From Patescibacteria group bacterium (lineage in GTDB: Bacteria > Patescibacteriota > Minisyncoccia > Minisyncoccales > JAHCRE01), in NCBI GenBank assembly GCA_020148145.1, contig JAHCRE010000011.1:3360-67359 (forward strand): a stretch of DNA of 64,000 nt, read 5' to 3'. This document shows, in pieces, positions 2,736-41,831 of the stretch; the first letter of the stretch is position 1; each line of letters opens with the position of its first letter. The notes under the pieces were generated by a model. It saw only the letters and a list, made by a program, of their open reading frames with translations, ran no database searches and was not told the DNA's origin. A program made the position numbers and the translations under genes.

Positions 2736-3983
2736 ATGAAAAAAATAATCTTAGCAATAATTTCAGCAACACTATTATTTACTATTCAGTCAACCTTAGC
2801 TACACCTACAAACTTAGTTGTCAATGGAGATTTTGAAACACCAGAAGTCACCAATTCTAGTAAATGGCAGGTTTTTTCCTCAGACGCTGTTCCAGGCTGG
2901 ACAGTAGAATGGGCAGCAGAATATTCAGGAGCACCAGACCCTGCCAATCTTGAGCTGCATGAGGGTGTTCTTATGTCTGCATATGACGGCGATCAGTCTG
3001 TAGAGATGGACACTGATTGGAGTTCAGCCAATGGAGAGCCAGCTTCAGTTAAAATTTATCAGGATATTGAAACATGCGTAGGCGGTGAATACACTTTAAG
3101 TTATGCCTGGTCTCCGCGTCCCAGACACAATAATAATGCAATGGAAGTTTACTGGAATGGAAGTTTAGTTGGAAGTCATTCAGGATCAACTTCTGGTTGG
3201 AACTTAGAGACAATAACCGGTTTAACTGCCTCTGGAGCTACAACCCGAATCGAATTTATTGAAACAGGTAATCCTGATTCTTTGGGAATGTTTTTAGATG
3301 CAGTAAGCGTTGAGCAGACCAAGGATTGTCTTTTAAGGGAAGCAGAAATTACTTCGCCAGCAGCAGGAGATACTATAGTTGGTTCAGTTGATTTCACAGC
3401 TTACTTAATTGATGATGACCAAGATCCTGTCCAGTGGGCTGTTAGAAAAGGAACTTGCGCTATGGGACAAGGCACGGTTTTAGGAAATGTTGATGGACAT
3501 AATGACCCCTATACTTGGACATATGATTCAGGTACCCACACTCATACTTTCTTAGCCACAGCTGATACTTGTGCCTGGGAGCCAGGAGATTATTGTTTTG
3601 TTTTTAATCCCAAAGAAGATAGCGGCGAAAGTGATATCCGCTTAACCCGTGAGTTTATAGTTGCTTCCTGCGATGAAGACGGTGATGGTATTGATAATAA
3701 TGAAGATATGTGTTTAGGAACAGGGGCAGATGTTCCCGAGGAAGAATTAGGAACTAATAGATGGATATGGGATGGGACTGACTGGATAACAAACAAACCA
3801 AAAGGAAAAGGCAAAGGACTTGATAGAGATTTTACTATTGAACAAACTAATGGATGTAGCTGTTTTCAGATACTTTATTGGCTTAATGAAAATTATCTTG
3901 CGGAATATGGTGAAATGAATGGTCATTGGAAATTTGGTTGCAGTAAGAGCGTTATAGAAGATTTTATTTCTCTTACTGACTAA
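2736..3983 (+). CDS. secreted protein: DUF642/choice-of-anchor-C-like N-domain plus Cys/Asp-rich C-terminal region
   Basis: signal peptide; NLVVNGDFE..GW..LDAVSV domain shared with the 5086 protein; CDEDGDGIDNNEDMC calcium-binding-like motif. Confidence 0.75.
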   Translation: MKKIILAIISATLLFTIQSTLATPTNLVVNGDFETPEVTNSSKWQVFSSDAVPGWTVEWAAEYSGAPDPANLELHEGVLMSAYDGDQSVEMDTDWSSANGEPASVKIYQDIETCVGGEYTLSYAWSPRPRHNNNAMEVYWNGSLVGSHSGSTSGWNLETITGLTASGATTRIEFIETGNPDSLGMFLDAVSVEQTKDCLLREAEITSPAAGDTIVGSVDFTAYLIDDDQDPVQWAVRKGTCAMGQGTVLGNVDGHNDPYTWTYDSGTHTHTFLATADTCAWEPGDYCFVFNPKEDSGESDIRLTREFIVASCDEDGDGIDNNEDMCLGTGADVPEEELGTNRWIWDGTDWITNKPKGKGKGLDRDFTIEQTNGCSCFQILYWLNENYLAEYGEMNGHWKFGCSKSVIEDFISLTD

Positions 3984-4036
3984 GTAATACAAAAATAAAA
4001 AGGTCGAACAAAATTATTTTAAAATTTTGAAAAAGA

Positions 4037-5011
4037 GTGAAAAAAATATTTTTAGTAACAATCATAGTAACTCTGTTATCTGTAGCAAGTATTGCAATGG
4101 CAGGTATTCCTGATGGAGCAGCTGGTCCCTGGGCAGATGAAATGGTGAGCTTTAATCAAGGAAACAGAGCTAATGGTACGCCAGTTGTGCCCGAAAGAAG
4201 CGACCCTACTCAAGCTCTTGGTCCAGCAGAAGGTACTGATACAATCAATTTTGTTTCTCTTGGTTTTGGTGGAATATTAATCTTGAAATTTGATAACTGC
4301 ATTTTAAACGGCGAAGGTGACGACATAGACATTGTTGAGACAAGTTATGGCAGTCCAAGTTGTGGCGCTTATCCAGAAACAGTTAGGATTTATGCTTCTC
4401 AAGATAATAGTACTTGGGAGGATTTGGGAACGAGCTGTTTAGATGGAGCTTGTGACTTGGGGTCATTGCCCTGGGCTCAATATATAAAGTTAGTTGATGA
4501 AAGTAATACTAGTGATTTTGGCGGGACAGCTGATGGTTTTGATGTTGATGGAGTAAAAGCAATTCATACCGCTGAAGAATGTCCAGAAGAACCTTGTTGT
4601 GGAGGAAAACAGATTAATGTAGGTAATCGTGCCTTTGTCATAAATGATGTAACAGCTGTTGGAAAGACCGGTGGAAATAAAATCATTAATATTGCCAGTA
4701 AAGGTGGCTCAAATGGTGGCAACAACACCATTAGGACCGGTGATGCCCAATCTGTCGCTGTTACTACTACTGTAGTTAATTCTAATTTAAGAGAACCTTG
4801 TTGTAGAGGAAAGCAAATTAATGTAGGTAATCGTGCTTTTGTAATGAACGATGTAACAGCTGTTTCAAAGACTGGCGGAAATAGAATTATTGACGTAGCC
4901 ACAAAAGGTGGTTCAAGCACTGGCCATAATTCAATCACTACTGGTTGGGTCTATTCCGGATCTTCAGCAATGACTGTTGTTAACAGCAATAAAAGAGGAA
5001 TTGTCCGCTAA
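4037..5011 (+). CDS. secreted protein: N-terminal beta-sandwich-like domain plus two CC-initiated Asn/Gly-rich repeat modules
   Basis: GTG start, signal peptide; modules CCGGKQINVGNRAFVINDVTAVGKTGGN..TGDAQSVAV..VVNSN from ~4595 and ~4799. Confidence 0.75.
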   Translation: MKKIFLVTIIVTLLSVASIAMAGIPDGAAGPWADEMVSFNQGNRANGTPVVPERSDPTQALGPAEGTDTINFVSLGFGGILILKFDNCILNGEGDDIDIVETSYGSPSCGAYPETVRIYASQDNSTWEDLGTSCLDGACDLGSLPWAQYIKLVDESNTSDFGGTADGFDVDGVKAIHTAEECPEEPCCGGKQINVGNRAFVINDVTAVGKTGGNKIINIASKGGSNGGNNTIRTGDAQSVAVTTTVVNSNLREPCCRGKQINVGNRAFVMNDVTAVSKTGGNRIIDVATKGGSSTGHNSITTGWVYSGSSAMTVVNSNKRGIVR

Positions 5012-5085
5012 ATAATACAAGGCTCAGGCATTTAGAGCCAAGAAAAGGTCGGCTAAAAATTTAAAAATTTTTAGAAATTAATCAA

Positions 5086-6147
5086 ATGAGAAAAATAATT
5101 GCAATAACAGTTTTGACAGTTTTAACTCTTACTGCTTTTCCAGTAAAAGCTAATGGAAACTTAGTTGTCAATGGTGGCTTCGAAGAGCCAGTAGTTACTG
5201 ATTCAGCCCAGTGGGATATTTTCCCTGACGGTACAACTGGTTTAGGTTGGACTGTTGAGTGGAGAGGAGATATTCCAACCAGCTGGGGCGGCTACCCAAG
5301 ACCAGATCCTTCTTTGCAGGAGCTTCATGCCGGAGTAAATGGCTGGCTTCCTTACGAAAGAGACCAATATGCCGAGCTCGATACAGACTGGTATGGTCCA
5401 GGGCATCCTCAAAACAATGAACCGGCTTCTGTAAAAATTTATCAGAATCTTTCTACTGGATGCGGATGCCAATACGAGTTAACATTTTGGTTTTCACCTC
5501 GACCTGGAACACCCGAGAGCGACAACGTTCTTGAGGTTCAGTGGGGCGGTACGGTTTTAGGCACTATTTCTCGAGCAGGCAATAGCCAGACTGACTGGTC
5601 AGAACACACATATACAGTAACTGCCACAGGTTCTACTACAAGATTGCAGTTTACTGATTTAGGTACTGCTAACTCTCTTGGAACTTTCCTTGATGATGTA
5701 AGTGTTACAGAGATTTCTTGCCCAGAAGAACCATGTTGTGGAGGAAAACAAATCAATGTAGGAAATCATGCCTTTGTGATAAATGATGTAACAGTTGTTT
5801 CAAAGACTGGCGGAAATAGAATTATTAATATTGCCAGTAAAGGCGGCTCAAATGGTGGCAACAACACCATTAGGACCGGCGATGCCCAATCTGTCGCTGT
5901 TACTGATACGGTGGTTAATTCTAATTTAAGAGAAGGTTGTTGCGAAGGAAAGCAAATTAATGTAGGAAATCACGCCTTTGTAATGAACGATGTAACCGCT
6001 GTTTCAAAAACTGGTGGCAATAGAATTATTGATGTAGCCACAAAAGGTGGTACAAGTTATGGCAATAATTCAATCACTACCGGTTGGGTTTATTCTGGAG
6101 CCTCAGCAATGACTGTTGTTAACAGCAATATTATTAGAAGCTGGTAA
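5086..6147 (+). CDS. secreted protein: DUF642/choice-of-anchor-C-like domain plus two Asn/Gly-rich repeat modules
   Basis: signal peptide; N-domain paralogous to the 2736 protein; C-terminal ~400 nt near-identical to 4590-5000. Confidence 0.75.
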   Translation: MRKIIAITVLTVLTLTAFPVKANGNLVVNGGFEEPVVTDSAQWDIFPDGTTGLGWTVEWRGDIPTSWGGYPRPDPSLQELHAGVNGWLPYERDQYAELDTDWYGPGHPQNNEPASVKIYQNLSTGCGCQYELTFWFSPRPGTPESDNVLEVQWGGTVLGTISRAGNSQTDWSEHTYTVTATGSTTRLQFTDLGTANSLGTFLDDVSVTEISCPEEPCCGGKQINVGNHAFVINDVTVVSKTGGNRIINIASKGGSNGGNNTIRTGDAQSVAVTDTVVNSNLREGCCEGKQINVGNHAFVMNDVTAVSKTGGNRIIDVATKGGTSYGNNSITTGWVYSGASAMTVVNSNIIRSW

Positions 6148-6157
6148 GAATTAATAG

Positions 6158-6315
6158 AGCTCAGATCCGCGCCCCCTATAGAAACTAGTGCTTAGGGGGC
6201 GGGACTTGGGCTCTGCCTTGAGCCATGCCCCGATCCTTTAGGATTCGGGGCGAAACCCCGGGTTCTTCGGAATTCGGAGCAAGGTTCAGGTATTTAAAGA
6301 ACCCAAGCCCGCCTA
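6158..6315. repeat. GC-rich multi-hairpin element in an intergenic region
   Basis: CGCCCCC..GGGGGCG, GCCCCGATCCTTTAGGATTCGGGGC, long-range GGCGGGACTTGGG/CCCAAGCCCGCC; strong contrast with AT-rich flanks. Confidence 0.6.
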
Positions 6316-6386
6316 AATTTTTCCCAAAATTTTGGTGGGCAAGAAAGGTCGAAGGGAAAAAATGAATTAAATAACATACAAGTAAA

Positions 6387-6869
6387 ATGAGAAAGATATT
6401 TGTTGGTTTAGCAGTTCTAGCTTTAGCCTTGATGGCAGTTGCTCCAGCTTTTGCTCGTGGGCCCAAACAGGTTGCTGTAGATAATTGCGCTTTTGTAATA
6501 AATGATGTAACAGCTGTTGGAAAGACTGGTGGAAACAAAATTATAAATATTGCCAGTAAAGGTGGCGATAACGATGGTAACAATACCATTAGGACCGGTG
6601 AAGTCGAGTCTGTTGCTTATGCTGAGACTATGGCTAATTCTAATTTACAAGAAGGTTGCTGCATGAGAAAGCAGATTAATGTAAATAATCATGCTTTTGT
6701 AATGAATGATGTAACAGCTGTTGGAAAAACTGGTGGGAACAAAATTGTTGATGTAGCCACAAAAGGTGGTGCAAGTGGTGGCAACAATTCAATTACTACT
6801 GGTTGGGTTTTGTCTGGAGCTACAGCAATTACTGTTGTTAACAGCAATATTACTAGAGGTGTAGAGTAG
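6387..6869 (+). CDS. secreted minimal protein: signal peptide plus two Asn/Gly-rich repeat modules only
   Basis: 160 aa; same module as the C-termini of the 4037 and 5086 proteins. Confidence 0.75.
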   Translation: MRKIFVGLAVLALALMAVAPAFARGPKQVAVDNCAFVINDVTAVGKTGGNKIINIASKGGDNDGNNTIRTGEVESVAYAETMANSNLQEGCCMRKQINVNNHAFVMNDVTAVGKTGGNKIVDVATKGGASGGNNSITTGWVLSGATAITVVNSNITRGVE

Positions 6870-7012
6870 TAGGACCATAGATATAAGATTGATTGTTAAG
6901 AATAAGGAAGAGGGTTCCTTGCCTCTTCCTCTGGATAAGCTCTTATAAAACCTTATAAAAGATTGATATGAGGGCTTATACAAGGGAAGACTACGACCCA
7001 CCCACCCTAAAT

Positions 7013-7576
7013 ATGAAAAAAAATCTTACAATTATCATTTTGGCTTTAATAATTATTCCTTTATCTGTTCAAGCTTTTTCCTTTGAAGAACTTTTTAACG
7101 AACTAGGAGAACTATTCTCCGATGAAGAATGGTTTTCTGAAGAATGGGTTTCTAATGAAAATGGCGATAGTCAAGTGATAAATAGGATTAATGTTTCAAC
7201 CAATACTGGCGATACAGTAATAAATGGTGAAGTAAAAGAAGGTGAGACAAAGAGTAAAGTCTATGTAAAAAATATTATTAACGGAACAGAAATAGATCCA
7301 ATTGAGATTGAATCTGAGGCAAACGAAGTTAAAGTGGAAAGCGAAATTAAAGTAGAGGATGACAAAGCCATTGTTCAAAGAGAAATCCAGATTGATTCTG
7401 AAACCGAGACAGAAACTTATGAGGTAGATTTGGAAGATGCTGATTCTTGTCTTTCTGAAATGGAAGCTTGTGAAGGGAATTTAGGAGAGACTGAAGAGAG
7501 TGTAACCGGCAGCTGGTGGGGCAACTTCGTTGATAATCTAAAATCTTTTTTCTGGAATATTTTTAGTATTTTTTAA
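7013..7576 (+). CDS. secreted acidic protein (start moved to MKKNLTIIILA)
   Basis: signal peptide begins at in-frame ATG 7013; Glu/Asp-rich. Confidence 0.6.
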   Translation: MKKNLTIIILALIIIPLSVQAFSFEELFNELGELFSDEEWFSEEWVSNENGDSQVINRINVSTNTGDTVINGEVKEGETKSKVYVKNIINGTEIDPIEIESEANEVKVESEIKVEDDKAIVQREIQIDSETETETYEVDLEDADSCLSEMEACEGNLGETEESVTGSWWGNFVDNLKSFFWNIFSIF

Positions 7577-7581
7577 AGAAT

Positions 7582-10500
7582 ATGAAAAAAATAAATAAAT
7601 CAAAAATTATTATCTTAATTTCTTTACTAATTACAGGATTAGTGGTTTTTGCTTTCTCTGCTTTTTCAGTTTTAGCTGAAGAAGGGGAAGGTGAAAATGG
7701 TGGTATCCAAATTGAAACAGCTGAACCTTATTGTGGCGATGGTAATGTAGATGAAAGTGAAGAGTGTGACGACGGCGCAAACAACGGCCTTGAATGCCTC
7801 CCTGAATATGGCTCAACTTGTAATTATTGTTCAACAGATTGTCAAACCGTTGAACTTCAGGGTCCCTATTGCGGAGATGGCAATTTAGACGATGGTGAAG
7901 AATGTGACGATGGAAATAATGAAGACGGAGATGATTGTTCAGCTAATTGCCTAACTGAAGAAGTTAGTGAACCAATATGTGGAGATGGAGTTATAGAAGG
8001 AGATGAAGAATGTGACGAAGGAGAAAATAATGGAACAGAGTGCACTCCTGAATATGGTTCAACCTGTAATTATTGTTCAACAGATTGTGGAATCGTCGAG
8101 CTTACAGGCGCTTACTGTGGCGATGGTAATTTAGACGAAGCTGAAGAATGCGATGACGCTAACAATGAAGATGGAGATGGTTGTTCAGCTAATTGTACAA
8201 TTGAAGAAGTTGCGGGCGAAGAAGGCACTGGCGAGGGAGAAAATGAACCACTATGTACCGACGTTGATGAAGACGGTTACGCAGTCGAAGGTGAAGATTG
8301 CGGAGCCATAGATTGTGATGATACTAACCCAGATGTTAATCCAGGTGCTACTGAAACTAGCGACAATCAAATTGATGACAATTGTGACGGCGAAATAGAC
8401 GAAGAAGAGCAAGGAGATTCAACTGACGAAGGAGACGAGGGAGACGAAGTAGACGAAGGAAACGAAGAATGCGAGGAAGAGATAGAGGAGATTATAGAAG
8501 ATTTCGAAGAAGAAAACTGCCAAGAAGAAGATTGTGCGATAGAGCTTGTCGAAAATAATGAGGCAGAAGTAGAAAATGAGATTGTAAATGCAGGGTCAAG
8601 CGGCAGTAATGAGGTTGAAAGTCCTGGCGATGCCATAATCGACACTGGAGATGTAAATTTGGTCGTTGGTTTAGTTAATACTGTAAATTCTAACGTTATT
8701 GGCTTTGATTTTGCTCAATTCTTATTCAACATTTTTTCGCAATTACAAGGAAATATTGATCTATCAGAGGAAATCGGAGAATCTTCTGAAGAAGGTTGTT
8801 CTCCAGATATGGATTGCATGAATATCGTTAGTGATAACGAGGGCTCTATTGAGAACGAAGTTTTAATTGATGCTTCAACTGGTAACAATTCAGCTAGCAG
8901 TAACAGCGGAGATGCGATTATTAACACAGGAGATGCTAATGTTGTTACCAATGTCTTTAATTTTCTCAACAGCAATATTATTGGTTCAAACTGGACCCAG
9001 ATTATTATAAATGTCTTTGATAATTGGATTGGTGATTTAATTTTCCCTGGAAAAGAGGCAATGCAAGATTTTTTAGGACAAGGATCATCGGTCTGCGGAG
9101 GAGATTGCGGAGGAACCAATATAGTTAGTTCGAATGAAGGCCAAATCGAAAACGAAGTTACTGTAGTTGCAGATACCGGTCAAAACACAATCACAAGAGG
9201 CTCTGGTATAATCAATACCGGTCATGCCAATGCCCAAGCCAATGTTTTTAACGTAGCTAATTCTAATATAAATGGTGGAAGCTGGTTCCTTTTAGGAATC
9301 AATGTTTTTGGCAACTGGAAGGGGAATGTATTTAGTTTACCTCCCGGCTTTGGAAATAATGTAAGCTCTAATGGTGTTAAACTTTATAATCTTGGACCCG
9401 AAGATCTCGATAATCCATCAGAGAATAGTTCTTTGAATATCGTTAACGATAATACAGGGACCATTAAAAATAGTGTTCTAGTCAATGTTTCAACTGGTGG
9501 AAACACGGCCAATTCCAATGAAGGCTCAGCTGTGATAAACACTGGAAATGCTAATGTTCTAACTAATCTCACCAATATTTTAAATTCAAATATTACTGGA
9601 GCCAATTGGCTTTTGGGGATGATTAATGTTTTTGGTAACTGGCAAGGGGATTTAGCTTTTGGCCGACCTGACCTTTGGATAGGAATTAGTGCAGAAGCTC
9701 CGAGTAATATGCCAAAAACTGGTGAGCAAATTACATACACCTTGACTTATATTAATAATGGAAATGCTGATGCCACCAATGTTACTATGACTGACGATTA
9801 CAATGAAGAGCATCTTGACGTTAATAATTCTGGTTCAGGTACGGTTATAGATAATCCGGGGGAAGTGTACTGGAACATTGGCACAGTCCCACCAGGTGGT
9901 TCAGGTTCAGTTTCATATACTACGACAGTCAATGGAAATATGCCCCGTGGAACAGGCCTTTATATTACTAACACCGCCCAAATTGACTGTTTTGAAGATG
10001 ATGCAAATTATGCAGATAATATTGATGAGATTTCAATCGGAATAGCTAAAATTTATGAAAATTCTCCCTGTGGCATGTGGCCCTGCCCATCAACACCTGC
10101 TCGACCAAACTTAGAAATTACCAAAACTAATAATGTTGATGATTTTGTTTATGCTGGAAGCGAGGTTGATTATCAGATAGTACTTTACAATGACAGTAGC
10201 GGCCCGGCCTATGATGTAGTTATTGAAGATGTTATAATTATTGACCAAGATTCTTTTGAAGTATTTAATACTCAAAGTTGGGATTTAGGGAAAGTTTTTC
10301 CTTATGAAGAAATAATCATTGACTATACAGTAGCTATTGGCTCTGAAGTCCCGGTTGGTTTTTATAAAAATACTGCTAAAGCTACGGGTACAGACAGCAA
10401 AGAAAATCCTGTTTGGACTTCTGAAGTCTCTACTGTAATTGAGGTAAGGGTAGAAGAAGCCCCTCCTCAGGAAGGAGCTGGAGAGGAATTAGAAGAAGAG

Positions 10501-10923
10501 GAAATAGTAGAAGAGGAAATTTCTCTTGAGGAGATAGAAAATGAACTAAATGGAATAGAGGATAAGATAGAGAAAATAAGGGAAGAAATAGAGAGAAGGA
10601 TAAAAGAAGCTCCCCCTGAGGTTTCGCCTGAGCCCGAAAGCACTCCAATTCATTTCCCAGAAATATTGATACCAGAAGTTTTAGCTCAAGAAGAAGAGCC
10701 CGGCCCATTAGAAGAACCCAAAGAGCCAAAAATTGAGAAAAATGGACTAGAAAAGCTTTTAGAAAAACTTCTGGGTGCAATCAGTAGAATGTCACCTGAA
10801 GATATTCCAATTGGTATTGGCCTCCTTACCCTTTCAATAATTATTTTATTCTTTTTAATGCGAGAACGAAAAAATAAAAAAGGGAAGAGAAAAAAGGGAA
10901 GAAAAAAAGTAAGTAAAACCTAA
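7582..10923 (+). CDS. giant mosaic surface protein (1113 aa)
   Basis: signal peptide; 4x CGDGxxDxxEECDDGxN..C cysteine-rich repeats; CxDxDxDG..DCDD motif; 4x N.G.I.N.V..TG.N..TGDAN..NSNI modules; 2x DUF11-like repeats; acidic coiled coil; C-terminal TM plus K/R tail. Confidence 0.8.
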   Translation: MKKINKSKIIILISLLITGLVVFAFSAFSVLAEEGEGENGGIQIETAEPYCGDGNVDESEECDDGANNGLECLPEYGSTCNYCSTDCQTVELQGPYCGDGNLDDGEECDDGNNEDGDDCSANCLTEEVSEPICGDGVIEGDEECDEGENNGTECTPEYGSTCNYCSTDCGIVELTGAYCGDGNLDEAEECDDANNEDGDGCSANCTIEEVAGEEGTGEGENEPLCTDVDEDGYAVEGEDCGAIDCDDTNPDVNPGATETSDNQIDDNCDGEIDEEEQGDSTDEGDEGDEVDEGNEECEEEIEEIIEDFEEENCQEEDCAIELVENNEAEVENEIVNAGSSGSNEVESPGDAIIDTGDVNLVVGLVNTVNSNVIGFDFAQFLFNIFSQLQGNIDLSEEIGESSEEGCSPDMDCMNIVSDNEGSIENEVLIDASTGNNSASSNSGDAIINTGDANVVTNVFNFLNSNIIGSNWTQIIINVFDNWIGDLIFPGKEAMQDFLGQGSSVCGGDCGGTNIVSSNEGQIENEVTVVADTGQNTITRGSGIINTGHANAQANVFNVANSNINGGSWFLLGINVFGNWKGNVFSLPPGFGNNVSSNGVKLYNLGPEDLDNPSENSSLNIVNDNTGTIKNSVLVNVSTGGNTANSNEGSAVINTGNANVLTNLTNILNSNITGANWLLGMINVFGNWQGDLAFGRPDLWIGISAEAPSNMPKTGEQITYTLTYINNGNADATNVTMTDDYNEEHLDVNNSGSGTVIDNPGEVYWNIGTVPPGGSGSVSYTTTVNGNMPRGTGLYITNTAQIDCFEDDANYADNIDEISIGIAKIYENSPCGMWPCPSTPARPNLEITKTNNVDDFVYAGSEVDYQIVLYNDSSGPAYDVVIEDVIIIDQDSFEVFNTQSWDLGKVFPYEEIIIDYTVAIGSEVPVGFYKNTAKATGTDSKENPVWTSEVSTVIEVRVEEAPPQEGAGEELEEEEIVEEEISLEEIENELNGIEDKIEKIREEIERRIKEAPPEVSPEPESTPIHFPEILIPEVLAQEEEPGPLEEPKEPKIEKNGLEKLLEKLLGAISRMSPEDIPIGIGLLTLSIIILFFLMRERKNKKGKRKKGRKKVSKT

Positions 10924-19114: not shown

Positions 19115-20176
19115 ATGCCGGAATTAGCTATTAATGTTATTAAAATTTTTACTCTGGGAGCAGCTGGATTTATTTTAGCATTTTTACTTACACCGATTTT
19201 AACCCATTTTTTATATAAATATAAACTTTGGCGAAAATCAGTAAGGGAAAGGGCCATTGATAGGGGAGAGGTACCCTTTTTTAAAAAATTTCATGGAAAA
19301 GAAGAAATTAGTATTCCGAGATTTGGAGGCTTACTTATCTGGGTAACAACTCTGATTTTAATTTTTTTATTTTTCATAATCTCAAAATTTACTGACATTT
19401 GGTGGCTTAAAAAACTAAATTTTTTAAGCCGAGGACAAACTTGGTTGCCTCTATTTACCTTAGTTGCAGCTTCTCTGTTAGGGCTGGTTGATGATATTTT
19501 ACAGGTTTTTGGCAAAGGGAAATATGTTGGTGGGGGATTGAGCCTTAAAACCCGCCTTATTTTGGTTTTCTTAATTGGTCTGATTGGTGCCTGGTGGTTT
19601 TATTCAAAACTTGACTGGACAACTCTGCATATTCCGGGAATAGGGGATTTTAAAATTGGAATCTGGTACATACCTTTTTTCATTTTGGTGATGATGGCAA
19701 CTTATTCAGGAGGAGTAATTGATGGGCTAGATGGTTTAGCCGGTGGAATTTTTGCCACGATTTTTGGAGCCTACTCAGCAATTGCCCTATTTTTAGGCCA
19801 GATTGATTTAGCTGCCTTCTCGGCTGTAATTTTGGGAACAATCTTGGCTTTTTTGTGGTTTAATATTCCGCCGGCCAGATTTTATATGGGAGAAACAGGA
19901 ATTTTAGGACTTTGTGCCACTTTAACCGTTATTGCCTTTTTAACTGATTCAGTGTTGGTTTTGCCAATAATTGGATTTTTATTAGTCATTGAATCGGGAT
20001 CAGTAATTTTACAGCTCCTTTCCAAGAAATTTCGCAAGAAAAAACTATTTTTAGCTGCCCCAATCCATCATCACTTTGAAGCCAAAGACTGGCCCCACTA
20101 CAAAGTCACAATGCGATTTTGGGTTATCGGAATTGTAATGGCAATTATAGGAATAGCTATCAGATTGCTTGGATAA
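19115..20176 (+). CDS. mraY: phospho-N-acetylmuramoyl-pentapeptide transferase
   Basis: 10-TM pattern, DDILQ.., DGLDGLAGG, PIHHHFE. Confidence 0.9.
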   Translation: MPELAINVIKIFTLGAAGFILAFLLTPILTHFLYKYKLWRKSVRERAIDRGEVPFFKKFHGKEEISIPRFGGLLIWVTTLILIFLFFIISKFTDIWWLKKLNFLSRGQTWLPLFTLVAASLLGLVDDILQVFGKGKYVGGGLSLKTRLILVFLIGLIGAWWFYSKLDWTTLHIPGIGDFKIGIWYIPFFILVMMATYSGGVIDGLDGLAGGIFATIFGAYSAIALFLGQIDLAAFSAVILGTILAFLWFNIPPARFYMGETGILGLCATLTVIAFLTDSVLVLPIIGFLLVIESGSVILQLLSKKFRKKKLFLAAPIHHHFEAKDWPHYKVTMRFWVIGIVMAIIGIAIRLLG

Positions 20177-20201
20177 TATGTAAAACCGTCACAAAAGAAA
20201 A

Positions 20202-20400
20202 ATAACCCAAAATCGGAGAGGGGCGATAGGGGAACTGGGTGTTCCCCCGAGGTGGAAGTATTGAAACCGCAAGGTTTCAAGGAGCGGAGCGAAGCCCCAA
20301 AGGGGGCGCTCGAGCGAAGCGCGAGAGAGCGGAGCGACGATTTTGGGTAATTGCCATTGTAATGGCAATTATAGGAATAGCTATTAGACTTTTGGGCTGA
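20202..20400 (+). repeat. GC-rich structured element (family GCE-1) plus diverged duplicate of the mraY 3' end
   Basis: 20202-20215 is the reverse complement of mraY 20114-20127; GC core 20216-20337; 20338-20400 repeats mraY 20114-20176 (52/63 nt identical). Confidence 0.8.
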
Positions 20401-20418
20401 GCTTGAACCGTAGTATAT

Positions 20419-20436
20419 TTTCTACGATCGTAGAAA
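20419..20436. promoter_or_regulatory. perfect 18-bp palindrome TTTCTACGATCGTAGAAA (candidate operator)
   Basis: ends 8 bp upstream of the -35 of the 20445 promoter; further copies at 47114-47133 and 63901-63920. Confidence 0.6.
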
Positions 20437-20444
20437 TCGCACTA

Positions 20445-20472
20445 TTGACAAAGTTTTTAAATTTGCTATAAT
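20445..20472 (+). promoter_or_regulatory. consensus promoter TTGACA-N16-(TGC)TATAAT
   Basis: CTATTGACAAAG..ATTTGCTATAAT; same architecture as 28637, 30546, 31352, 40082 and 42162(-). Confidence 0.6.
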
Positions 20473-20499
20473 CGAAATAGTAAAAATGGGGGAAATGGA

Positions 20500-20748
20500 A
20501 TGGAACTTAAAGTAGGAACGTTGGTGGTGAACAGATATCACAAAACTTTCGGAATTGTCGTAGAAGAAAAAGGAGGAGGAGAGTGGGTGCTACGATGCTG
20601 TTCTCCTCTTGGAACTGATGTTCGGGATGTTCTTAGTAAGGCTCAATTAAAGCCGCTCTTGGATATTCCAGAATCGGAGCGAGAGCTTCCTATTAAAGAA
20701 ATTCTTGAAAAATATCAATGGGGCATACTTGCTAGGGCGTTTTGCTAG
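20500..20748 (+). CDS. small protein, CCSPxG family, paralog 1
   Basis: 82 aa; W-V-L-R-CCSPLG and L-D-I-PESE motifs shared with the 31412 protein; SD-like GGGGGAAA. Confidence 0.6.
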   Translation: MELKVGTLVVNRYHKTFGIVVEEKGGGEWVLRCCSPLGTDVRDVLSKAQLKPLLDIPESERELPIKEILEKYQWGILARAFC

Positions 20749-20821
20749 AACATTTACTTAAATTGAAAATTCTTCAAAAATCCTTAAAAACATCGAAACC
20801 ACCACCTTAAATTCCCAAAAA

Positions 20822-20856
20822 GGGGTTATCCAAAATAAGGATTGACCCCGTTTTTT
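20822..20856 (+). terminator. conserved terminator GGGGTTATCC..GGATTGACCCC + T-run
   Basis: same hairpin after the paralogs at 31788-31820 and (inverted) 41786-41826. Confidence 0.7.
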
Positions 20857-20888
20857 ATTTTAAGAAAATTTTGTTAAAATATTATAAG

Positions 20889-31252: not shown

Positions 31253-31351
31253 AAGTATAAAAAACTACGAATTTCCATTAAGGGGCTTTCCAAAAAGGAT
31301 TGACCCCATTTTTTATTCTTAGGGTAAGGAACTGGCGGTTTTTTGATAATA

Positions 31352-31762: not shown

Positions 31763-31912
31763 CCAACCGTCCTGAAATTTCCAGCAAGGGGTTATCCAAA
31801 AAGGATTGACCCCGTTTTTTATTTTAACTCCCTCCAAACAGGTTCTAACATTGTCTTGCAACATGTGTTGTTAGGCCGAGCGTCTCACAAGACATATTAA
31901 GCGACATTTCTT

Positions 31913-32126: not shown

Positions 32127-32306
32127 ATGGATCATCTTTTAACCATTAAAGAGGTTGCTAAATATCTCAAGGTCAGCGAGAGGTCTATTTTGCGTTATAT
32201 TGAATCTGGTCGACTTAGAGCTTCTAAGATCGGCCAATGGCGTATCAAGAAAGGGGATTTAGAAAAATTTTTAAAAGAAAACTCAAATGTCAAAAAGAAA
32301 ATTTAA
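32127..32306 (+). CDS. excisionase-family helix-turn-helix DNA-binding protein (59 aa, below the track cutoff)
   Basis: LLTIKEVAKYLKVSERSILRYIESGRLRASKIGQWRIKKGDLEKFL; overlaps the MTase start by 20 nt. Confidence 0.7.
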   Translation: MDHLLTIKEVAKYLKVSERSILRYIESGRLRASKIGQWRIKKGDLEKFLKENSNVKKKI

Positions 32307-33447
32307 AAAAAGAGATGGCTGGGATTTTACAGAGGTACCTTTAAGAATCAGACAGGGTGGGGTTCATTTCTTTCATCACTATACAGCTAAATTTATACCT
32401 CAAATTCCAGAAAAATTTATTAAAATGTACTCCCAAAAACGAAATAATATCGTGGTCGATCCGTTTATGGGCTGTGGGACTACTTTGGTAGTTGCTAAAT
32501 TGATTGGTTGTCATTCCTACGGTGTAGATACCAATCCTTTAGCAGTTAAAATTACTAAAGTAAAAACAATGGTCGTTAACAAAAAAATTGTAGAGGAAAT
32601 AGATGATTTCATTCATTGGATTTCATCTCGTAAAGAATATAGAAAAACAAATAATACAAAATCTCTTTCCAAGACAGATTTTCGACAAGGGGAGAAAGGC
32701 ACATTTCTATTTGAAGGCAGTAAAGAGTGGTTTAGAAATGACGTAGCGGGCAAGATTAAAAACATATTAAATCGAACAAAAGTTTACGACGAACATGTAC
32801 GGGACTTTATAAAAGTCGGGGTTTCGGATTTATTAAAAGGTATGAGTAATGCCCGTATGGATATCAATGTTCCCACGCTTCCATCTCGCCCGATTTACAT
32901 AGATAAAAAGCATTATTATAGAAGGGTAAACAATCGGACAAGATACATTCCGGTTTATTCAAGAGTATTATCGCAAGTTTTAAGAATGAAAAAAGCAATT
33001 TTAGAGTTTAACAAGAACATAAATCATAATTTAATTTGTAAACCTAAGCTGGGCGATGCTAGAGAGTTAAGTAAACACGTAAAGTCGTGTAATCTTGTTA
33101 TAACTTCTCCACCATACTGGTCAGCTCAAAATTATCAGAAACTTCACATGCTCTCATTTAAGTTATTTGGTCTGAACATAGATGAGGAAGATGAAATTGG
33201 AAGGAATGGTCATGACCATTATCAAAAGGACATGGTAAAAGTTCAAGAAGAAATCGCAAAAATTCTTAAAGGATACTATGGTCTTGTTATAGGTAAAGAT
33301 AAGCGGAATCGAGAACATTTGAAGCTCGTAGAATCGGCTAAAAGAGTTGGTTTTAAATTAGTTGATAGGTTTGTTAGACGCTTAAGCAACCAAACATTTT
33401 TTTCTAAACAAATTAAAAATGAGTTTATTTATGTTTTTAAAGTTTAA
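32287..33447 (+). CDS. DNA amino-methyltransferase (N4-C or N6-A), motif I before motif IV
   Basis: VVDPFMGCGTTLVVA (FxGxG) near the N-terminus, ~200-aa insert, then VITSPPYW. Confidence 0.8.
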   Translation: MSKRKFKKRDGWDFTEVPLRIRQGGVHFFHHYTAKFIPQIPEKFIKMYSQKRNNIVVDPFMGCGTTLVVAKLIGCHSYGVDTNPLAVKITKVKTMVVNKKIVEEIDDFIHWISSRKEYRKTNNTKSLSKTDFRQGEKGTFLFEGSKEWFRNDVAGKIKNILNRTKVYDEHVRDFIKVGVSDLLKGMSNARMDINVPTLPSRPIYIDKKHYYRRVNNRTRYIPVYSRVLSQVLRMKKAILEFNKNINHNLICKPKLGDARELSKHVKSCNLVITSPPYWSAQNYQKLHMLSFKLFGLNIDEEDEIGRNGHDHYQKDMVKVQEEIAKILKGYYGLVIGKDKRNREHLKLVESAKRVGFKLVDRFVRRLSNQTFFSKQIKNEFIYVFKV

Positions 33448-33459
33448 ATTTTGATTATT

Positions 33460-34959
33460 ATGAAAACTTTTGATTTTAGCAAATCAGTAATTCAGGAGGT
33501 TATAGATGAATTCGATCGAGCAGAAAAATACATAAAAATAGCTATGTTTCAAATCCACAATGATTTAGTTATTGATAAATTATTCAAAAAAATTAAGGAG
33601 GGGTTAATAGTAGAAATAATAACATTACCTTATGATAGTATTCACGAGAACGTAAGAGAACATGTAACAGAGAGACTAGAAAAGCTTAAATCTAGAGGGG
33701 GTAATATTCTATTCTGTAAATGGAATGTTGGAGACCCTGAAAGAACCACGACAGCAGTGGGAAGGTGGTATTTATTTCATGGAAAGTTCATCGTAACGGA
33801 TAAGGCAGCGATTAGTCTTTCTGCAAATTTTATCCAAACTCCTGAGCTAGACGCAATCCTAATTTTCAGAAATGAGCAAGATAAGATTCAAGAATTTAAT
33901 AATAAATTCGAGGAACTAAAAGAGTTATTCATAATTGAAAATAATGGTTATGAAGGGAATATTAGACAAAAAATATCGGAGACAAAGCACCCAAGAGCTA
34001 AAGAAGTTTTTGCACTTCCAAGGGGAATAAGCGAAGTATATAAAAAAACATGGATACAACATTATCCATCTGAATTATGTCCTAAGGATGTAAATATAGA
34101 AGAAAAACTATATATAACTCCATTTGATTGTAGGGGAAGAAATTTTCTTATGAAGATTATTGATGAGGCCGAAAAATTCGTTTATATTTCCTCTGAAAGT
34201 TTCACTGATAAAGAATTTCCTAATTTCTTAAAAAAAATTAGATTCAAAAATATAGAGATAAAGTTATTAACTGAATTTGGAAGCATGGATTTTTCTGATA
34301 GAATACAAATTTTTATGAAAGAATTATTAGCAGCGGGCGTACAAATGAATACAACAAGAGAAGATTTACATGCCAAACTAGTAATTACAGATAAATTAAT
34401 CGCTATAACCTCAATAAATCTTAATAGAATAAATTTAGGATTTAAGAAAACCGGAGATTTTTGGAGAGAGAACACAGAGACAATACTAATATGTAGAGGT
34501 CACAACATAATAAGGAAAGCAAGACAGAAATATAACGCAATTTTTAATGCATCGGAAAAAATTATTGATAAAATGGCTGAGAGAAATTCATCAGTTGCTG
34601 GGAGACTATTTAGGGATGTGTTCAAAATTAGATCGGGTTCAGATGCTAAGCTATTTTTAGCTAAACTGAAATTGAATGTAGATATTAACAAAGAGAAATT
34701 TTTATTAGATGTTTTAAAACTAACCATTAAGCTAGCTAATAATTTTAATGTGAGAATAATTTCAAAAAAAGAAGTATTGATGGCTTTAATATTAAATTAT
34801 CTAAGTGAGAGGAAGCATGATTTCAATGAATTATCCGAGAAATTAGATCCAATTATAGAGCGAGCAGAAATAGAACCCGTCTTAGACATTCTTGTTTCAC
34901 GTAATCTAATTGTAAAGCAAGGAGAATTTTACAAGATAAACGTTGATGCAATTTTCTAA
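33460..34959 (+). CDS. PLD-family (two HKD motifs) nuclease, likely the restriction partner, with a C-terminal winged-helix-like region
   Basis: HGKFIVTD and HAKLVITD motifs; 3 nt after the MTase stop (TTG 33451 or ATG 33460). Confidence 0.7.
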   Translation: MKTFDFSKSVIQEVIDEFDRAEKYIKIAMFQIHNDLVIDKLFKKIKEGLIVEIITLPYDSIHENVREHVTERLEKLKSRGGNILFCKWNVGDPERTTTAVGRWYLFHGKFIVTDKAAISLSANFIQTPELDAILIFRNEQDKIQEFNNKFEELKELFIIENNGYEGNIRQKISETKHPRAKEVFALPRGISEVYKKTWIQHYPSELCPKDVNIEEKLYITPFDCRGRNFLMKIIDEAEKFVYISSESFTDKEFPNFLKKIRFKNIEIKLLTEFGSMDFSDRIQIFMKELLAAGVQMNTTREDLHAKLVITDKLIAITSINLNRINLGFKKTGDFWRENTETILICRGHNIIRKARQKYNAIFNASEKIIDKMAERNSSVAGRLFRDVFKIRSGSDAKLFLAKLKLNVDINKEKFLLDVLKLTIKLANNFNVRIISKKEVLMALILNYLSERKHDFNELSEKLDPIIERAEIEPVLDILVSRNLIVKQGEFYKINVDAIF

Positions 34960-34967
34960 GGCAAAAA

Positions 34968-34991
34968 AGCCCATCGCTGGGCTGTTTTTTT
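34968..34991 (+). terminator. rho-independent terminator after the R-M pair
   Basis: AGCCCATCGCTGGGCT + TTTTTTT. Confidence 0.65.
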
Positions 34992-35045
34992 ATCCAGTTT
35001 GACACTTATTAAAAAGCCAGCTACTTTGAAAGTGGGAGATTACTT

Positions 35046-35528
35046 ATGAAAGAAAAAAATAAATTAAAAAAGATAAAATATAAAATTAAAACAGCTCTCG
35101 ATCAATTATACAAAACTGATTATTTTCTATTCGAAAAAGATTTGTGTGAAAGATGTATAAATCATAAATTTGCAATATATTTGGAACAACAAAGTTTTGG
35201 TAAAGGATACTTTATCGACTGTGAATATAATAAATCCCATCTTAATCAAAGAACTAGCCCAAAAAGAGTCTCTAGTGAGAAAGGAAACTATATCGACATC
35301 ATTATCACCAAAAGAGACGGTAATTATAGGAACGATTTTATTTGTTTTGAGGTTAAGAAATGGAAGAATTATAGAAAGAAAAATAAGGATATAGAAAAAT
35401 TACAAATTTTAACCAAAGGAATACGATTTGGCTATGATTATGGTTTTTATGTCATTTTAGGAAGGACAAGAGATGAAACAAAAGTTGAAATATATAAAGG
35501 AGGAAAACTTTTAAAACACACTTTCTAG
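35046..35528 (+). CDS. PD-(D/E)xK nuclease-fold-like protein (160 aa)
   Basis: YIDIIITKRD ... FICFEVKKW (D..ExK pattern); SD GGGAG. Confidence 0.45.
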   Translation: MKEKNKLKKIKYKIKTALDQLYKTDYFLFEKDLCERCINHKFAIYLEQQSFGKGYFIDCEYNKSHLNQRTSPKRVSSEKGNYIDIIITKRDGNYRNDFICFEVKKWKNYRKKNKDIEKLQILTKGIRFGYDYGFYVILGRTRDETKVEIYKGGKLLKHTF

Positions 35529-35639
35529 GATGATTTAAATGGTGTTGGAACATCCTTAAGTGTCGGGCAAGGTATTTATGCGAGGTTTAGCAAAAACATA
35601 AAAGGTCGAAGAATTAATTGAGAAATAACAAAAAATATT

Positions 35640-37190
35640 ATGGCGAAAAGATTTAACAAAACTGACAAAGTTGTAATAGAACCAAAAGAAGAATTTGCTT
35701 ATGGATATATCATCAAAGCTTTAGCAGGAGGACTATACCCAAACAAGTTTCATGTTATTAGAGAATATATTCAGAATGCTTTTGATGCAGTAGTTAATTG
35801 GAAAGATACTCATAATGGCTCAAATGTTATTGTAAAAATAACAGTTAAAAAGCCCTCTATATTTATATTTGACAACGGAACAGGCATGAATAGGGTTACG
35901 CTTAACGAGTACAGGAAAGTAGGATATTCAAGGAAAAAAATAGGCGAGGCTGTTGGATTTAGGGGCATAGGGAAACTAGCCGGTATTTCAGTGGCCAGAA
36001 AATTAATAGTTACAACAAGTCCTTATGGCGTTAAAGAAAAATACGCTCTGGAATTTGATGCCGAGAGAATGCTTAAAGAGATCGATGATTTAAAAAAACG
36101 TAAGCAGAACATACCCCTCAATACACTGATAGAAAAATATACGAACATAAGCTCCGATGTCGAAAAGGCAGACAAGCATTATACATTTATAGAGCTTCAT
36201 GGAATAAAGCAGGATTCGAAGATTCTTTTTGATAAAAATAAGCTAAAAGACTACATTTCGAAAAATACACCCGTTCCTTTTGATCCAAACTTTGTTTACG
36301 GAAAAGAAATCGAAGATGGAATTAAGAAATTAGTTGATGACTATAACTGCGTAAATATTTTTGTAGACGGTGATAATATCTATAAGCCTTACATTCCGAA
36401 CCTAAACAATCCTAGACACATCGTAGTCTGGGAAAAAAACAAAACAAAAATATTAGGATACTGCTGGTATTGCGAAAACAAAAAAAGGGGGCAGATAAAG
36501 CCTATTGACAAAGCAGGTTTGGTTTATAGATACAAAAATTTTGCAGTTGGAGACCATGATTTGCCTAGGCGAACATTGTGGGATACTTCTACCCATCTAG
36601 CTTTTTACTTTATAGGGGAGATTTACATTTGTGATAAGAATATGTTACCAACTGCACAAAGAGATGATTTTGAGCAGACATCAGCTCGTAGTAGATTTTA
36701 TAATGAAGGTGTCCAGATTTCAAAGGAAATTAACAGAATAGCTAGGGCAAGTTCTGGAATAAGAAGGGCGTTGCATTATGTCGATGTTGGAAAGAACCTA
36801 ATTTCAGAAGTTAAACAGGACCTTCAGAAGCAGGAGCATTATTTAAAAGACCTCGGTGCGGAAAAAGTCGCACAGATTTACAATGTCATAAAAGGCATAA
36901 AAGAAAGAAAAAAGAATATTCCTAAAAAAAATAAGAAGAATAGAATTCTGGCAGACAAAGTCGTTAAGCAAGGGGAATTGTTGCTTAAGAAATTTGGAGG
37001 TGTCAAAAGATTAAGTAGGGAGTATGATATAACAAGAAAAATCAATCTCAATGCTCAGGCTAAAGATGTATATTCTGTGGCTATCAGAACTCTGAAAGAT
37101 TTTTTTATTGGTAACCAGCAAGAACTAGAAAAGGCGATAAGGCTTTTTCAGAAAAACTTGACGACCTTTTTCTCAAAAAAGAACAAATGA
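35640..37190 (+). CDS. GHKL (Bergerat-fold) ATPase, MORC/paraMORC-like, unknown C-terminal half
   Basis: REYIQNAFDA (N box), FDNGTGM (G1), GFRGIGKLAG (G2); AAGGTCGAA box 36 nt upstream. Confidence 0.75.
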   Translation: MAKRFNKTDKVVIEPKEEFAYGYIIKALAGGLYPNKFHVIREYIQNAFDAVVNWKDTHNGSNVIVKITVKKPSIFIFDNGTGMNRVTLNEYRKVGYSRKKIGEAVGFRGIGKLAGISVARKLIVTTSPYGVKEKYALEFDAERMLKEIDDLKKRKQNIPLNTLIEKYTNISSDVEKADKHYTFIELHGIKQDSKILFDKNKLKDYISKNTPVPFDPNFVYGKEIEDGIKKLVDDYNCVNIFVDGDNIYKPYIPNLNNPRHIVVWEKNKTKILGYCWYCENKKRGQIKPIDKAGLVYRYKNFAVGDHDLPRRTLWDTSTHLAFYFIGEIYICDKNMLPTAQRDDFEQTSARSRFYNEGVQISKEINRIARASSGIRRALHYVDVGKNLISEVKQDLQKQEHYLKDLGAEKVAQIYNVIKGIKERKKNIPKKNKKNRILADKVVKQGELLLKKFGGVKRLSREYDITRKINLNAQAKDVYSVAIRTLKDFFIGNQQELEKAIRLFQKNLTTFFSKKNK

Positions 37191-38059: not shown

Positions 38060-38077
38060 TATATTACACTTTTAAAT

Positions 38078-39193: not shown

Positions 39194-39305
39194 ATCTGCT
39201 ACCGAACCAATTAATTAACAATCCTCCTGCACTCTGGGGAGTTCCGGAGGACAAGAAATAACTCCTTAGAAAAAATTGAAGATTTCTTACGGGGCAGGGA
39301 ATTAA

Positions 39306-39572
39306 TTGAGAAATAAAACTATGGGCAAGTCAGGTAGAAAGATAAGGTCGACAGGAAATAATTTAAGAACATGCGAAGTATTAACCAAGGATGGTGTGTG
39401 GAGAGCTGGGTTTTTGTTTATCGATTCTTCTGATTATCTTGTTCTTGCTAATAATATTTATAACGACTCATTGATGGGTCCACTTAAACAAAGAAAAATC
39501 AGATGTATACATAAAGAAGCTGATTTTACAGTCTTTCCTCGTGAGAAAGTGTGTAATATAAAATTTTTCTAG
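39306..39572 (+). CDS. hypothetical protein (start uncertain: TTG 39306 or ATG 39321)
   Basis: ORF only. Confidence 0.4.
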   Translation: MRNKTMGKSGRKIRSTGNNLRTCEVLTKDGVWRAGFLFIDSSDYLVLANNIYNDSLMGPLKQRKIRCIHKEADFTVFPREKVCNIKFF

Positions 39573-39579
39573 CGGAGGT

Positions 39580-40070: not shown

Positions 40071-40081
40071 TATTTTTATTA

Positions 40082-40109: not shown

Positions 40110-40138
40110 GTAGGTAGCACAAAATTGGAGGGAGATAG

Positions 40139-41782: not shown

Positions 41783-41831
41783 AAAAAACGGGGTTAATCC
41801 TCTCTATGGGCTAACCCCTTTTTGGGAATCT

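Follow-up and report, generated by a model that had tools for sequence, protein, structure and literature searches.

Within a 64-kb stretch of DNA (the window; 35.7% G+C) on a Patescibacteria contig from a metagenome-assembled genome (MAG), we found a short, GC-rich, structured element at the 3′ end of mraY, flanked on either side by a version of the last codons of that gene. Our analysis indicates that the downstream version is the original gene end and that the upstream version is part of an inserted 224-nt block. We read this block as a non-autonomous element, integrative or homing in nature, in which a replacement gene tail and a fold-back arm accompany a structured core that forms the conserved functional module, a reading in which our confidence is about even. 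The family to which it belongs consists of non-coding, GC-rich, structured elements of Patescibacteria, with cores of 116 to 177 nt oriented as their neighboring genes, and is undescribed; our literature search returned only group I intron work in Patescibacteria, in which the element is not described.

The mraY coding sequence (19115-20176, plus strand, as for all features of this locus) is an open reading frame (ORF) of 353 amino acids with the Pfam domain PF00953. NCBI lists a protein of identical sequence for a "Patescibacteria group bacterium" MAG, and the nearest named relatives are Candidatus Nealsonbacteria. The last 20 codons and the TAA stop (20114-20176), referred to as tail A herein, contain no residue that is rare among 119 homologues. 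Following the stop are an AT-rich spacer of 25 nt (20177-20201), an inverted arm termed revX (20202-20215), a core of 122 nt (20216-20337) and a second tail, tail B (20338-20400), which matches tail A at 52 of 63 positions and does not join any ORF that starts upstream. The revX arm is the exact complement of X (20114-20127), the segment that forms both the left edge of the duplication and the 5′ strand of a hairpin paired in the full-context fold, and it complements X′, the counterpart of X in tail B, at 13 of 14 positions. Calculated duplex energies were −18.2 kcal/mol for revX with X and −15.9 kcal/mol with X′. The core stands out at 63% G+C and is recovered by a covariance model at 20219-20338 (100 bits, E = 2.6e-26). 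This layout had been proposed in an original prediction made from the sequence alone, and its coordinates, spacer, exact inverted arm, core and 63-nt copy all held when we re-examined them. Likewise, what had been described as a noncoding "element" of roughly 220 bp corresponds to the 224-nt block (20114-20337), which has no ORF of its own save an artefactual 53-codon frame.

Alignment of the two tails confirmed the 11 differences in eight codons that had been counted by hand. Only one of them alters an amino acid (GGA Gly to GCC Ala); a TTG CTT pair is swapped to CTT TTG, and TAA becomes TGA, so that the stop is kept. The Ala of tail B is absent at that position in all 119 homologues. The codon change responsible for it also creates a perfect 8-bp hairpin, ATTGCCAT-TGTA-ATGGCAAT (20350-20369), which we read from the sequence and found in the predicted fold, and which tail A and all relatives lack; it could be either decay or a selected structure. 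Since the distance from the start of A to the start of B (20114 to 20338) is 224 nt and not a multiple of three, straight read-through would leave B outside the mraY frame. Because tail A also carries its own stop, the sequence implies that MraY is made with tail A and that no removal of the block is required for gene function.

The original prediction had also noted the core at a second gene with arms of its own, and this proved to be an S41 (CtpA-like) peptidase gene (51915-53099, minus strand, as for all features of this locus; NCBI name S41 family peptidase), referred to as ctpA herein, which ends in its own tail A. Its revX (51899-51914) directly follows the stop codon and complements X (51951-51966) at 16 of 16 positions, with duplex energies of −27.7 kcal/mol for X and −21.2 kcal/mol for X′. 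The core (51754-51898; covariance-model match at 51753-51894, 144 bits) contains the optional hairpin P2 described below, and its 3′ domain is identical to that of the mraY core at 59 of 61 positions. Tail B (51702-51753) is followed by 14 nt and the start of rplI. It encodes DPQLNKAIEIIKDL and a stop, compared to DPQLGKAIEVVKQL and a stop in the gene; over 45 nt the tails differ by eight nucleotides and four conservative amino acids, and tail B has a 1-nt deletion at the junction.

To find further copies, we searched 185,579 species-representative genomes (GTDB) as well as metagenome contigs with a degenerate pattern that captures the core's conserved 3′ part. The representatives yielded one true match, designated L003, which lies behind fusA and before tuf; the other ten matches among them were chance occurrences in GC-rich genomes. 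The metagenomes yielded 18 contigs. In 16 contigs (L003 and 15 metagenome contigs), we found the same ordered architecture at the 3′ ends of conserved genes, namely gapA (five contigs), rpsJ, rplR (two), rpsI (two), fusA, a gene whose protein ends in ...GIRRIRAIL (two contigs) and a methyltransferase-like gene. The order was invariant: the gene, X-Y-stop, 0 to 29 nt, the reverse complement of X, the core, and X′-Y′-stop. In every case the duplicated segment, 19 to 72 nt in length, ran from the insertion point through, or slightly beyond, the stop codon, and the element was always oriented as its gene. Many copies lie within ribosomal-protein operons, all of them sense. Ten or more different targets with unrelated junction sequences thus share one core, with arms that are target-specific. 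We found no common motif at the insertion points, where the nucleotides 5′ of the junction vary (AATG, TAAT/C, GGAA, GAGC, TCGG and others), only microhomologies of 2 to 4 nt to which no statistical test was applied. A covariance model built from 18 copies, a scan suggested along with the original prediction, recovered 32 copies in the sequences gathered, four of them in the window. Searches of viral contigs, plasmids and phages for the core gave no copy.

Comparison with related genomes showed that the sites exist in empty form. The mraY 3′ regions of four relatives (L030-L033; 79-84% nucleotide identity), a comparison that the original prediction had proposed, are uninterrupted, with a single tail and no element; the stop is followed after 3 to 12 nt by the TTGACA of the next promoter, or by a terminator. 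Similarly, gapA is empty in L034-L037, each with a single tail and a protein 90-91% identical to that of the filled locus L016. These empty genes are as close to L016 (84-85% nucleotide identity) as is the filled gene of L012 (83%), and the distances among gapA genes (83-88%) do not set filled ones apart from empty ones. L040, a complete Nealsonbacteria genome, has an empty ctpA with rplI after 14 nt, and the region upstream of dnaK, which holds a relative of the core in the window, is empty in L038-L040. Among the genomes sampled, the mraY and ctpA insertions are unique to this one, although their tails A and B differ by ∼17%. Two observations on these relatives stand apart. First, L035 (113-979, near gapA) and L039 (4796-4896, after dnaJ) carry ORFs for LAGLIDADG homing endonucleases beside housekeeping genes; both are relatives without the GC-rich element. 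Second, six glyceraldehyde-3-phosphate dehydrogenase (GAPDH) homologues (P0129, P0130, P0141, P0155, P0175 and P0227) end in ...VGEESSK rather than ...VGKKL. The sole ...VGEESSK locus checked, L037, has no core, which indicates an alternative tail of other origin.

Which of the two tails is native was decided by what follows them. At ctpA, the 14 nt from tail B to rplI equal the spacing in the empty relative, and at mraY, tail B is followed by a consensus promoter of the next gene (20445-20472; TTGACA, 16 nt, TATAAT, with TG) that marks the native intergenic context. Since tail B is collinear with the native downstream context, we take it to be the displaced native tail. Similarity to the relative's tail pointed the same way at ctpA, where B was closer than A (∼80% versus 71% of nucleotides; two versus four amino acid differences by hand count), while the mraY tails were not separated by similarity to relatives (51 versus 50 of 63). 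Read in this way, the sequences identify tail B as the displaced original and give the inserted block four parts, tail A, spacer, inverted arm and core, with its end exactly at the 5′ edge of X′; at mraY, the block sits directly 5′ of the Arg334 codon of the original gene.

The substitutions between the tails indicate that both have histories as coding sequence. When we introduced 11 random substitutions into tail A in 200,000 simulations, one or no amino acid change arose at a frequency of 5e-6, with a mean of 7.4 changes. The simulations bear out the earlier suggestion that the copy evolved as coding sequence rather than as a drifting duplication, and the substitution pattern excludes a duplication made in place and followed by drift. 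The gapA loci showed the same trend: tails A of L016 and L026 have 13 synonymous and no nonsynonymous codon differences, and tails B of L012 and L016 have eight synonymous and none nonsynonymous. The gapA tails B of L012, L016 and L025 agree in all 19 residues that they encode, apart from a single nonsense codon in L025. Measured against the 119 homologues, we found five anomalies (rare residues or a nonsense codon) in five B tails and one in five A tails, which suggests that B is under relaxed constraint.

We next considered the inverted arm, whose sequence complements the beginning of the duplicated stretch. At its base, the stem formed by X and revX is bounded on the left by the edge of the duplication and on the right by the 5′ boundary of the core. 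Of ten loci compared, six favor pairing of revX with X over X′, three show no difference and one slightly favors X′. The gapA arms also track lineage-specific synonymous variants of X, reading GCTTATG in L025 and CATACGC in L012 and L026. Because of this stronger pairing and tracking, we conclude that the arm belongs with tail A. The predicted hairpin of arm on tail spans 14 to 17 bp, with the stop codon in its loop. In the minimum-energy fold of a 311-nt mraY context, revX and X form a 17-bp stem whose loop holds the stop and the spacer, and tail B folds alone into an 11-bp hairpin around its perfect 8-bp center. In L022, the hairpin of tail A is the perfect 14-bp form of a 7-bp quasi-palindrome in the native tail, and from its sequence it looks like the outcome of fold-back template switching.

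Alignment of the cores revealed a common anatomy. From 5′ to 3′, it comprises RRAGGGGUC; P1, a 7- to 9-bp stem of variable sequence; GURUAGGAAAACAG; the optional hairpin P2; P3 (UUAGAAACC ... GGUUUCUAA); GGAGCGRAGCGAAGC; the small variable hairpin P4; GCGCUCGAGC; a short loop; and GCGAGAGRGAGCGGAGCGAC. At mraY, the 5′ part GAGAGGGGCGAU is followed by P1 (20228-20248), a joiner (20249-20258), P3 (20259-20281), GAGCGGAGCGAAGC (20282-20295), P4 (20296-20305), the palindrome-containing GCGCTCGAGC (20306-20315) and a GAGCG-rich 3′ end to 20337/8. In the covariance-model alignment, double-sided changes occurred at 15 of 22 pairs, and 93.8% of cells were paired, compared to 82% in shuffled alignments (none of 500 shuffles reached the observed values) and ∼55% when the partner was slid by one column. 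G-U pairs are found on the gene-sense strand only. Folds of single sequences exceeded shuffled controls in stability by 4.6 to 5.9 standard deviations (z-scores −4.6 and −5.0 for the mraY core), and loci with flanking genes of 73-87% identity have cores of 90-97% identity. The core thus has what is generally expected of a structured RNA, helices with compensatory changes on one strand, and the alignments mark it as an element structured on the sense strand, whether the folded form is RNA or single-stranded DNA. Five to seven GAGCG pentamers, some in each orientation and the palindrome CGCTCGAGCG among them, lie in its 3′ domain and could serve as alternative RNA pairings or as protein-binding sites on DNA. 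No Rfam family was found at the core, either in a gathering search of the window or at E values up to 10 on 19900-20600 and nine loci. A core-encoded peptide was rejected: the frame relative to B differs between loci, and no ORF spans the ctpA core.

Copies of the core are not confined to duplicated gene ends. Copies with the mraY-type 3′ domain end exactly at the +1 position of a tRNA at three loci: L013 (last base of the core 3835, tRNA-Thr from 3836), L018 (1509/1510, tRNA-Ile, inside an rRNA operon) and L028 (237/236, tRNA-Thr). In the window, a partial copy with only the 3′ domain (56704-56807, minus strand; 52 bits, E = 1e-12) ends 3 nt before the +1 of tRNA-Lys (56629-56700). Diverged relatives, identified by sequence profile and covariance model, share the 5′ domain, have other 3′ domains and lie just before start codons, at 2 nt from rpsN, 5 nt from dnaK and 11 to 19 nt from mreB and other genes. 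The dnaK relative is an expanded form in the window (∼230 nt, 62023-62250, minus strand; match at 62036-62169, 23 bits, E = 2e-4) that fills the gap between a trypsin-like protease gene and dnaK, carries additional hairpins and closes with a 3′ domain of another type whose last bases are GUGCCGCGAAC; 5 nt separate it from the dnaK ATG at 62017. In L039, a syntenic relative, a plain 48-nt AT-rich spacer takes its place. Since relatives adjoin tRNA +1 positions and start codons with no tail duplication, the core is a broader interspersed structured element and not solely a gene-tail integrator. The +1 of a tRNA is a landmark in RNA and none in DNA, our main reason to suspect that RNA 5′ ends determine where the core has its 3′ junction. 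Three observations on these copies stand on their own. In the L018 rRNA operon spacer, between the 16S rRNA 3′ end and tRNA-Ile (133-1361), ORFs of 158 and 186 amino acids accompany the core, and the second resembles a methyltransferase. In L021 (∼6420-6730, minus strand), three partial or complete core relatives in tandem form a composite structured region of ∼300 nt before one gene. The copy at 56704-56807 is fused to a GGACACCUUU...AAAGGGGUCC hairpin, a type that also occurs near 48880-48910 and 51200-51235.

To account for these data, we propose that tails A and B went their separate ways in different lineages, each serving as the functional end of an orthologous gene, hence their nearly exclusively synonymous differences. 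The block would have been acquired, tail included, from the mraY of another genome by recombination within the near-identical X segment, an entry resembling that of integrative elements or homing introns into an empty allele. Precise loss could occur by recombination between A and B, which would produce a patchy distribution and B tails ranging from pristine to mildly decayed. The core probably acts as RNA or as a single-stranded form of the sense strand, in mobility and/or transcript processing, and any enzyme would act in trans because the element encodes no protein. More speculatively, a new gene-specific tail and arm might arise when a polymerase or reverse transcriptase switches template at RNA 5′ ends, an idea suggested by the fold-back geometry and by the junctions at tRNA +1. 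Copies at tRNA +1 might then reflect a template switch that leaves a host RNA at its 5′ terminus and resumes at the 3′ terminus of a separate core RNA, adding 0 to 3 nucleotides, unless the core is a processing signal there.

As for the fate of tail B, we favor the reading that it is a recent relic: the block enters naive alleles together with A, and B is the tail resident at entry. We prefer this because nothing is missing from A, which is also constrained, because damage is seen in several B tails, and because no mechanism of removal suits the data; it is also in line with targets that are conserved motifs of essential genes. The reading in which B is used and kept by selection is less favored. 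A population model of repeated loss by A-B recombination and regain from filled alleles could reconcile both.

Several observations weigh against an integrative or homing element. Between gapA loci, tail A plus spacer is 76-82% identical and the host genes 78-86%, a divergence that vertical co-divergence fits equally well, although vertical inheritance would leave the clean B tails of L012 and L016 in need of another explanation, selection. The gapA tails, at ∼60 nt, are short and saturated, and their phylogeny does not resolve a lineage of elements carrying tail A. We saw no enzyme, excised form or population polymorphic for filled and empty sites, and no co-conversion signal upstream of the mraY insertion; the predicted proteins of the empty alleles had no exact match in a 15-billion-protein collection. 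The search pattern demanded a near-perfect 3′ domain, and the sample is thus biased toward young or conserved copies. Duplicated arms and tails are missing from the copies at tRNA +1 and from those at start codons, so that one insertion mechanism does not obviously fit all contexts. Lastly, the analogy to integrative islands leaves the hairpin-forming inverted arm unexplained and assigns it no role.

A bolder version of our proposal, which we advance tentatively, is that the family represents a protein-less selfish element of ∼200 nt that retargets itself by base-pairing. An enzyme acting in trans (a reverse transcriptase, recombinase or nuclease) would be brought in by the core, and the arms, being derived from the target, would steer insertion to essential genes at their 3′ ends; the recoded tail would rescue the host, and junctions would form at RNA 5′ ends. 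When we scanned 20 ORFs of the window, we found no reverse transcriptase or transposase, and the only integrase was Xer-like (40826-41782); no shared gene or protein flanks the arm-less copies. If this bolder proposal is true, engineered "home-and-rescue" gene drives would have a natural equivalent in the element, which would reveal an RNA-templated insertion pathway not described in bacteria.

The strongest competitor to an inserted element, though one we consider unlikely, is a resident cis-acting RNA that punctuates or processes transcripts, with the tail duplication and arm arising locally by fold-back or template-switch replication. Cleavage at the core 3′ end would set the 5′ ends of tRNAs and mRNAs and leave the upstream mRNA a protective hairpin, as befits a core that is flush with tRNA +1 at three loci and 3 nt away in the window, relatives that end 2 to 19 nt before start codons, and the many sense-oriented copies in ribosomal-protein operons. 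The perfected 14-bp hairpin of L022 also bears the signature of a template-switch mutation, and the divergence of tail A and spacer tracks that of the host. However, a copy made in place starts with A equal to B, and neutral drift of B cannot yield silent differences at ten of 11 sites. The empty sites in equally close relatives would, in addition, demand repeated precise losses, and the cleavage is predicted only, with no match to a known ribozyme or RNA family.

We also weighed whether both tails are used, such that the stretch from A to the core is removed or skipped in RNA, by intron-like excision or by bypass from X to X′, and B is partly translated and under selection. The gapA tails B of L012, L016 and L025, which conserve their residues despite eight to nine silent codon differences per pair, make this worth considering, as do X and X′, whose near-identity would suit sites of take-off and landing. 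T4 gene 60 is likewise called to mind by the stop codon placed in a hairpin loop and by the purine-rich run, resembling a Shine-Dalgarno sequence, before X′, and the L025 nonsense codon falls within X′, which bypass would skip. Yet tail A is complete, in frame, stop-ended and strongly constrained, so that B is unneeded, and several B tails have residues unseen in homologues, a nonsense codon or an indel. A core of 122 nt is too small for a group I or II intron and has no splice-site consensus or Rfam match; no known bypass reaches even a quarter of the 224-nt gap, and copies flanking tRNAs cannot be introns. Taken together, this makes the use of both tails improbable.

Somewhat more doubtful still is a minimal remnant of an integrase island, reduced to its attL and attR arms and mobilizable in cis by tyrosine recombinases encoded elsewhere, with GAGCG motifs as putative arm-type sites. 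Direct repeats of the target 3′ end, in which a block of identity gives way to divergence, are an island hallmark, the five to seven pentamers lie in both orientations around a palindrome, and an Xer-like integrase gene is present in the window. That gene, however, is 20 kb away in a restriction/defense island, and none of the 32 copies is a full-length relative that carries an integrase. One core at ten or more unrelated targets, with junctions that share no motif, does not fit such a remnant, nor do copies at tRNA +1 and start codons that have no direct repeats, and G-U hairpins with strict sense orientation point to a single-stranded form. Finally, although the source is a MAG, a chimera of the mraY ends of two strains joined via a repeat is very improbable: the architecture occurs twice in this contig and in 16 contigs from different projects and assemblers with gene-specific sequences, and a chimera would not make an inverted arm of 14 to 16 nt every time.

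Elsewhere in the window, a terminator-like module, AAGGGGTTATCCAAAAAGGATTGACCCCGTTTTTTATT, is repeated behind several genes (20805-20863, 31265-31321, 31771-31827 and, on the minus strand, 41781-41829), and separate pairs of GC-rich hairpins occur at 11812/12320 and 48811/51121. A run of secreted-protein genes at 2736-10923 has neighbors that share DNA repeats of 153 and 300 nt (4580-6821, 7722-8211, 8920-9654). The defense/mobile island at 32287-41782 encodes an N6/N4 DNA methylase, a PLD-family nuclease, an HATPase_c_3 protein, a radical-SAM/B12 protein, a RusA resolvase and the Xer-like tyrosine recombinase mentioned above.

Among known systems, the integrative element that restores the 3′ end of its target, the class named in the original prediction, matches in part. 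Genomic islands, integrative and conjugative elements (ICEs), integrative and mobilizable elements (IMEs) and their integrase-less derivatives, the cis-mobilizable elements (CIMEs), insert at the 3′ ends of tRNA genes or of protein genes such as rpsI, rplL, guaA and fda. The element described here, for which rpsI is also a target, likewise enters the 3′ end of a conserved gene, supplies a slightly altered replacement end, displaces the original as a direct repeat and has relatives with empty sites. The attL/attR-like repeats of the target 3′ end, with the gene intact, are present at mraY (52 of 63 between A and B) and at nine other genes; layout, empty sites and displaced tail therefore agree with the predicted class. 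What departs from it is the rest: the block is ∼220 nt long, geneless and without a recombinase of its own, and in place of a single attachment sequence, the family uses ten or more unrelated junctions with target-specific arms. The arm that forms a hairpin around the stop codon, the constant sense orientation and the arm-less relatives at tRNAs and start codons are equally foreign to islands.

Small interspersed repeats, such as REP, BIME and REPIN sequences, miniature inverted-repeat transposable elements (MITEs), Correia elements of Neisseria, mycobacterial MIRUs and Rickettsia palindromic elements, are similarly short, structured, multi-copy (four per 64 kb here) and lineage-restricted, and they too occupy intergenic or intercistronic positions and are co-transcribed with neighbors. 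Here, in contrast, 19 to 72 nt of target up to the stop are duplicated in synonymously different form, and no RAYT or transposase partner is known. A MITE was rejected specifically, as the family shares no terminal inverted repeats, duplicates no short target of fixed length and has gene-specific arms. Homing introns and inteins share the preference for conserved sites of essential genes, a gene that stays functional and a patchy distribution, which suggests cycles of gain and precise loss. Unlike them, the block is not removed from RNA or protein; the duplicated tail keeps the function, and the 122 nt hold no ribozyme core or endonuclease. Group I and II introns were rejected on the lack of an Rfam match at E = 10 (the region and nine loci), the core length and junctions without a conserved nucleotide, and known self-cleaving ribozymes (hammerhead, twister, pistol, hatchet, HDV-like and others) on the lack of a covariance-model match.

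The likeness to the omega RNAs of TnpB and IscB and to IS110 bridge RNAs is in layout only, a structured scaffold abutted by locus-specific sequence related to the target. In our case there is no adjacent nuclease or recombinase, target-adjacent motif or Rfam match, and target sequence lies on both sides. An IS200/IS605 omega RNA or PATE was rejected, with no TnpB, IscB or TnpA beside any copy and a left junction that lacks a conserved motif. Bypass elements (T4 gene 60; the mitochondrial "byp" elements of Magnusiomyces) are also GC-rich structured inserts in the coding sequence of AT-rich genomes, with matching flanks and a stop in a hairpin, but their gaps are 55 nt or less as opposed to 224 nt, and here a complete in-frame tail with its stop comes first, so that bypass is unnecessary. 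Two further candidates were set aside. For a diversity-generating retroelement, A occupies one of 11 differing sites in copy B and three of 11 in copy A by hand count, and no reverse transcriptase was found among the 20 window ORFs; for a retron non-coding RNA, inverted arms are present, but no reverse transcriptase is adjacent at any of the 32 copies.

Taken together, our comparison places the element with integrative elements in layout and with homing introns and inteins in ecology, while it has the defining features of neither class, with no recombinase and many targets on the one side and no ribozyme core and no removal on the other. Annotation pipelines currently miss the family, and its displaced tails could pass for pseudogene fragments. 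If it is mainly an RNA-processing element, it would point to a lineage-specific punctuation of operon transcripts that gives tRNAs and near-leaderless mRNA 5′ ends. If it is mobile, it would be an additional type of mobile element in Patescibacteria, whose reduced genomes are thought to carry few, and to our knowledge the smallest known to occupy essential genes harmlessly by means of a recoded gene end. A scaffold re-armed for at least ten targets would then imply either programmable, sequence-guided insertion or recurrent template switching, and either would be new for bacteria.

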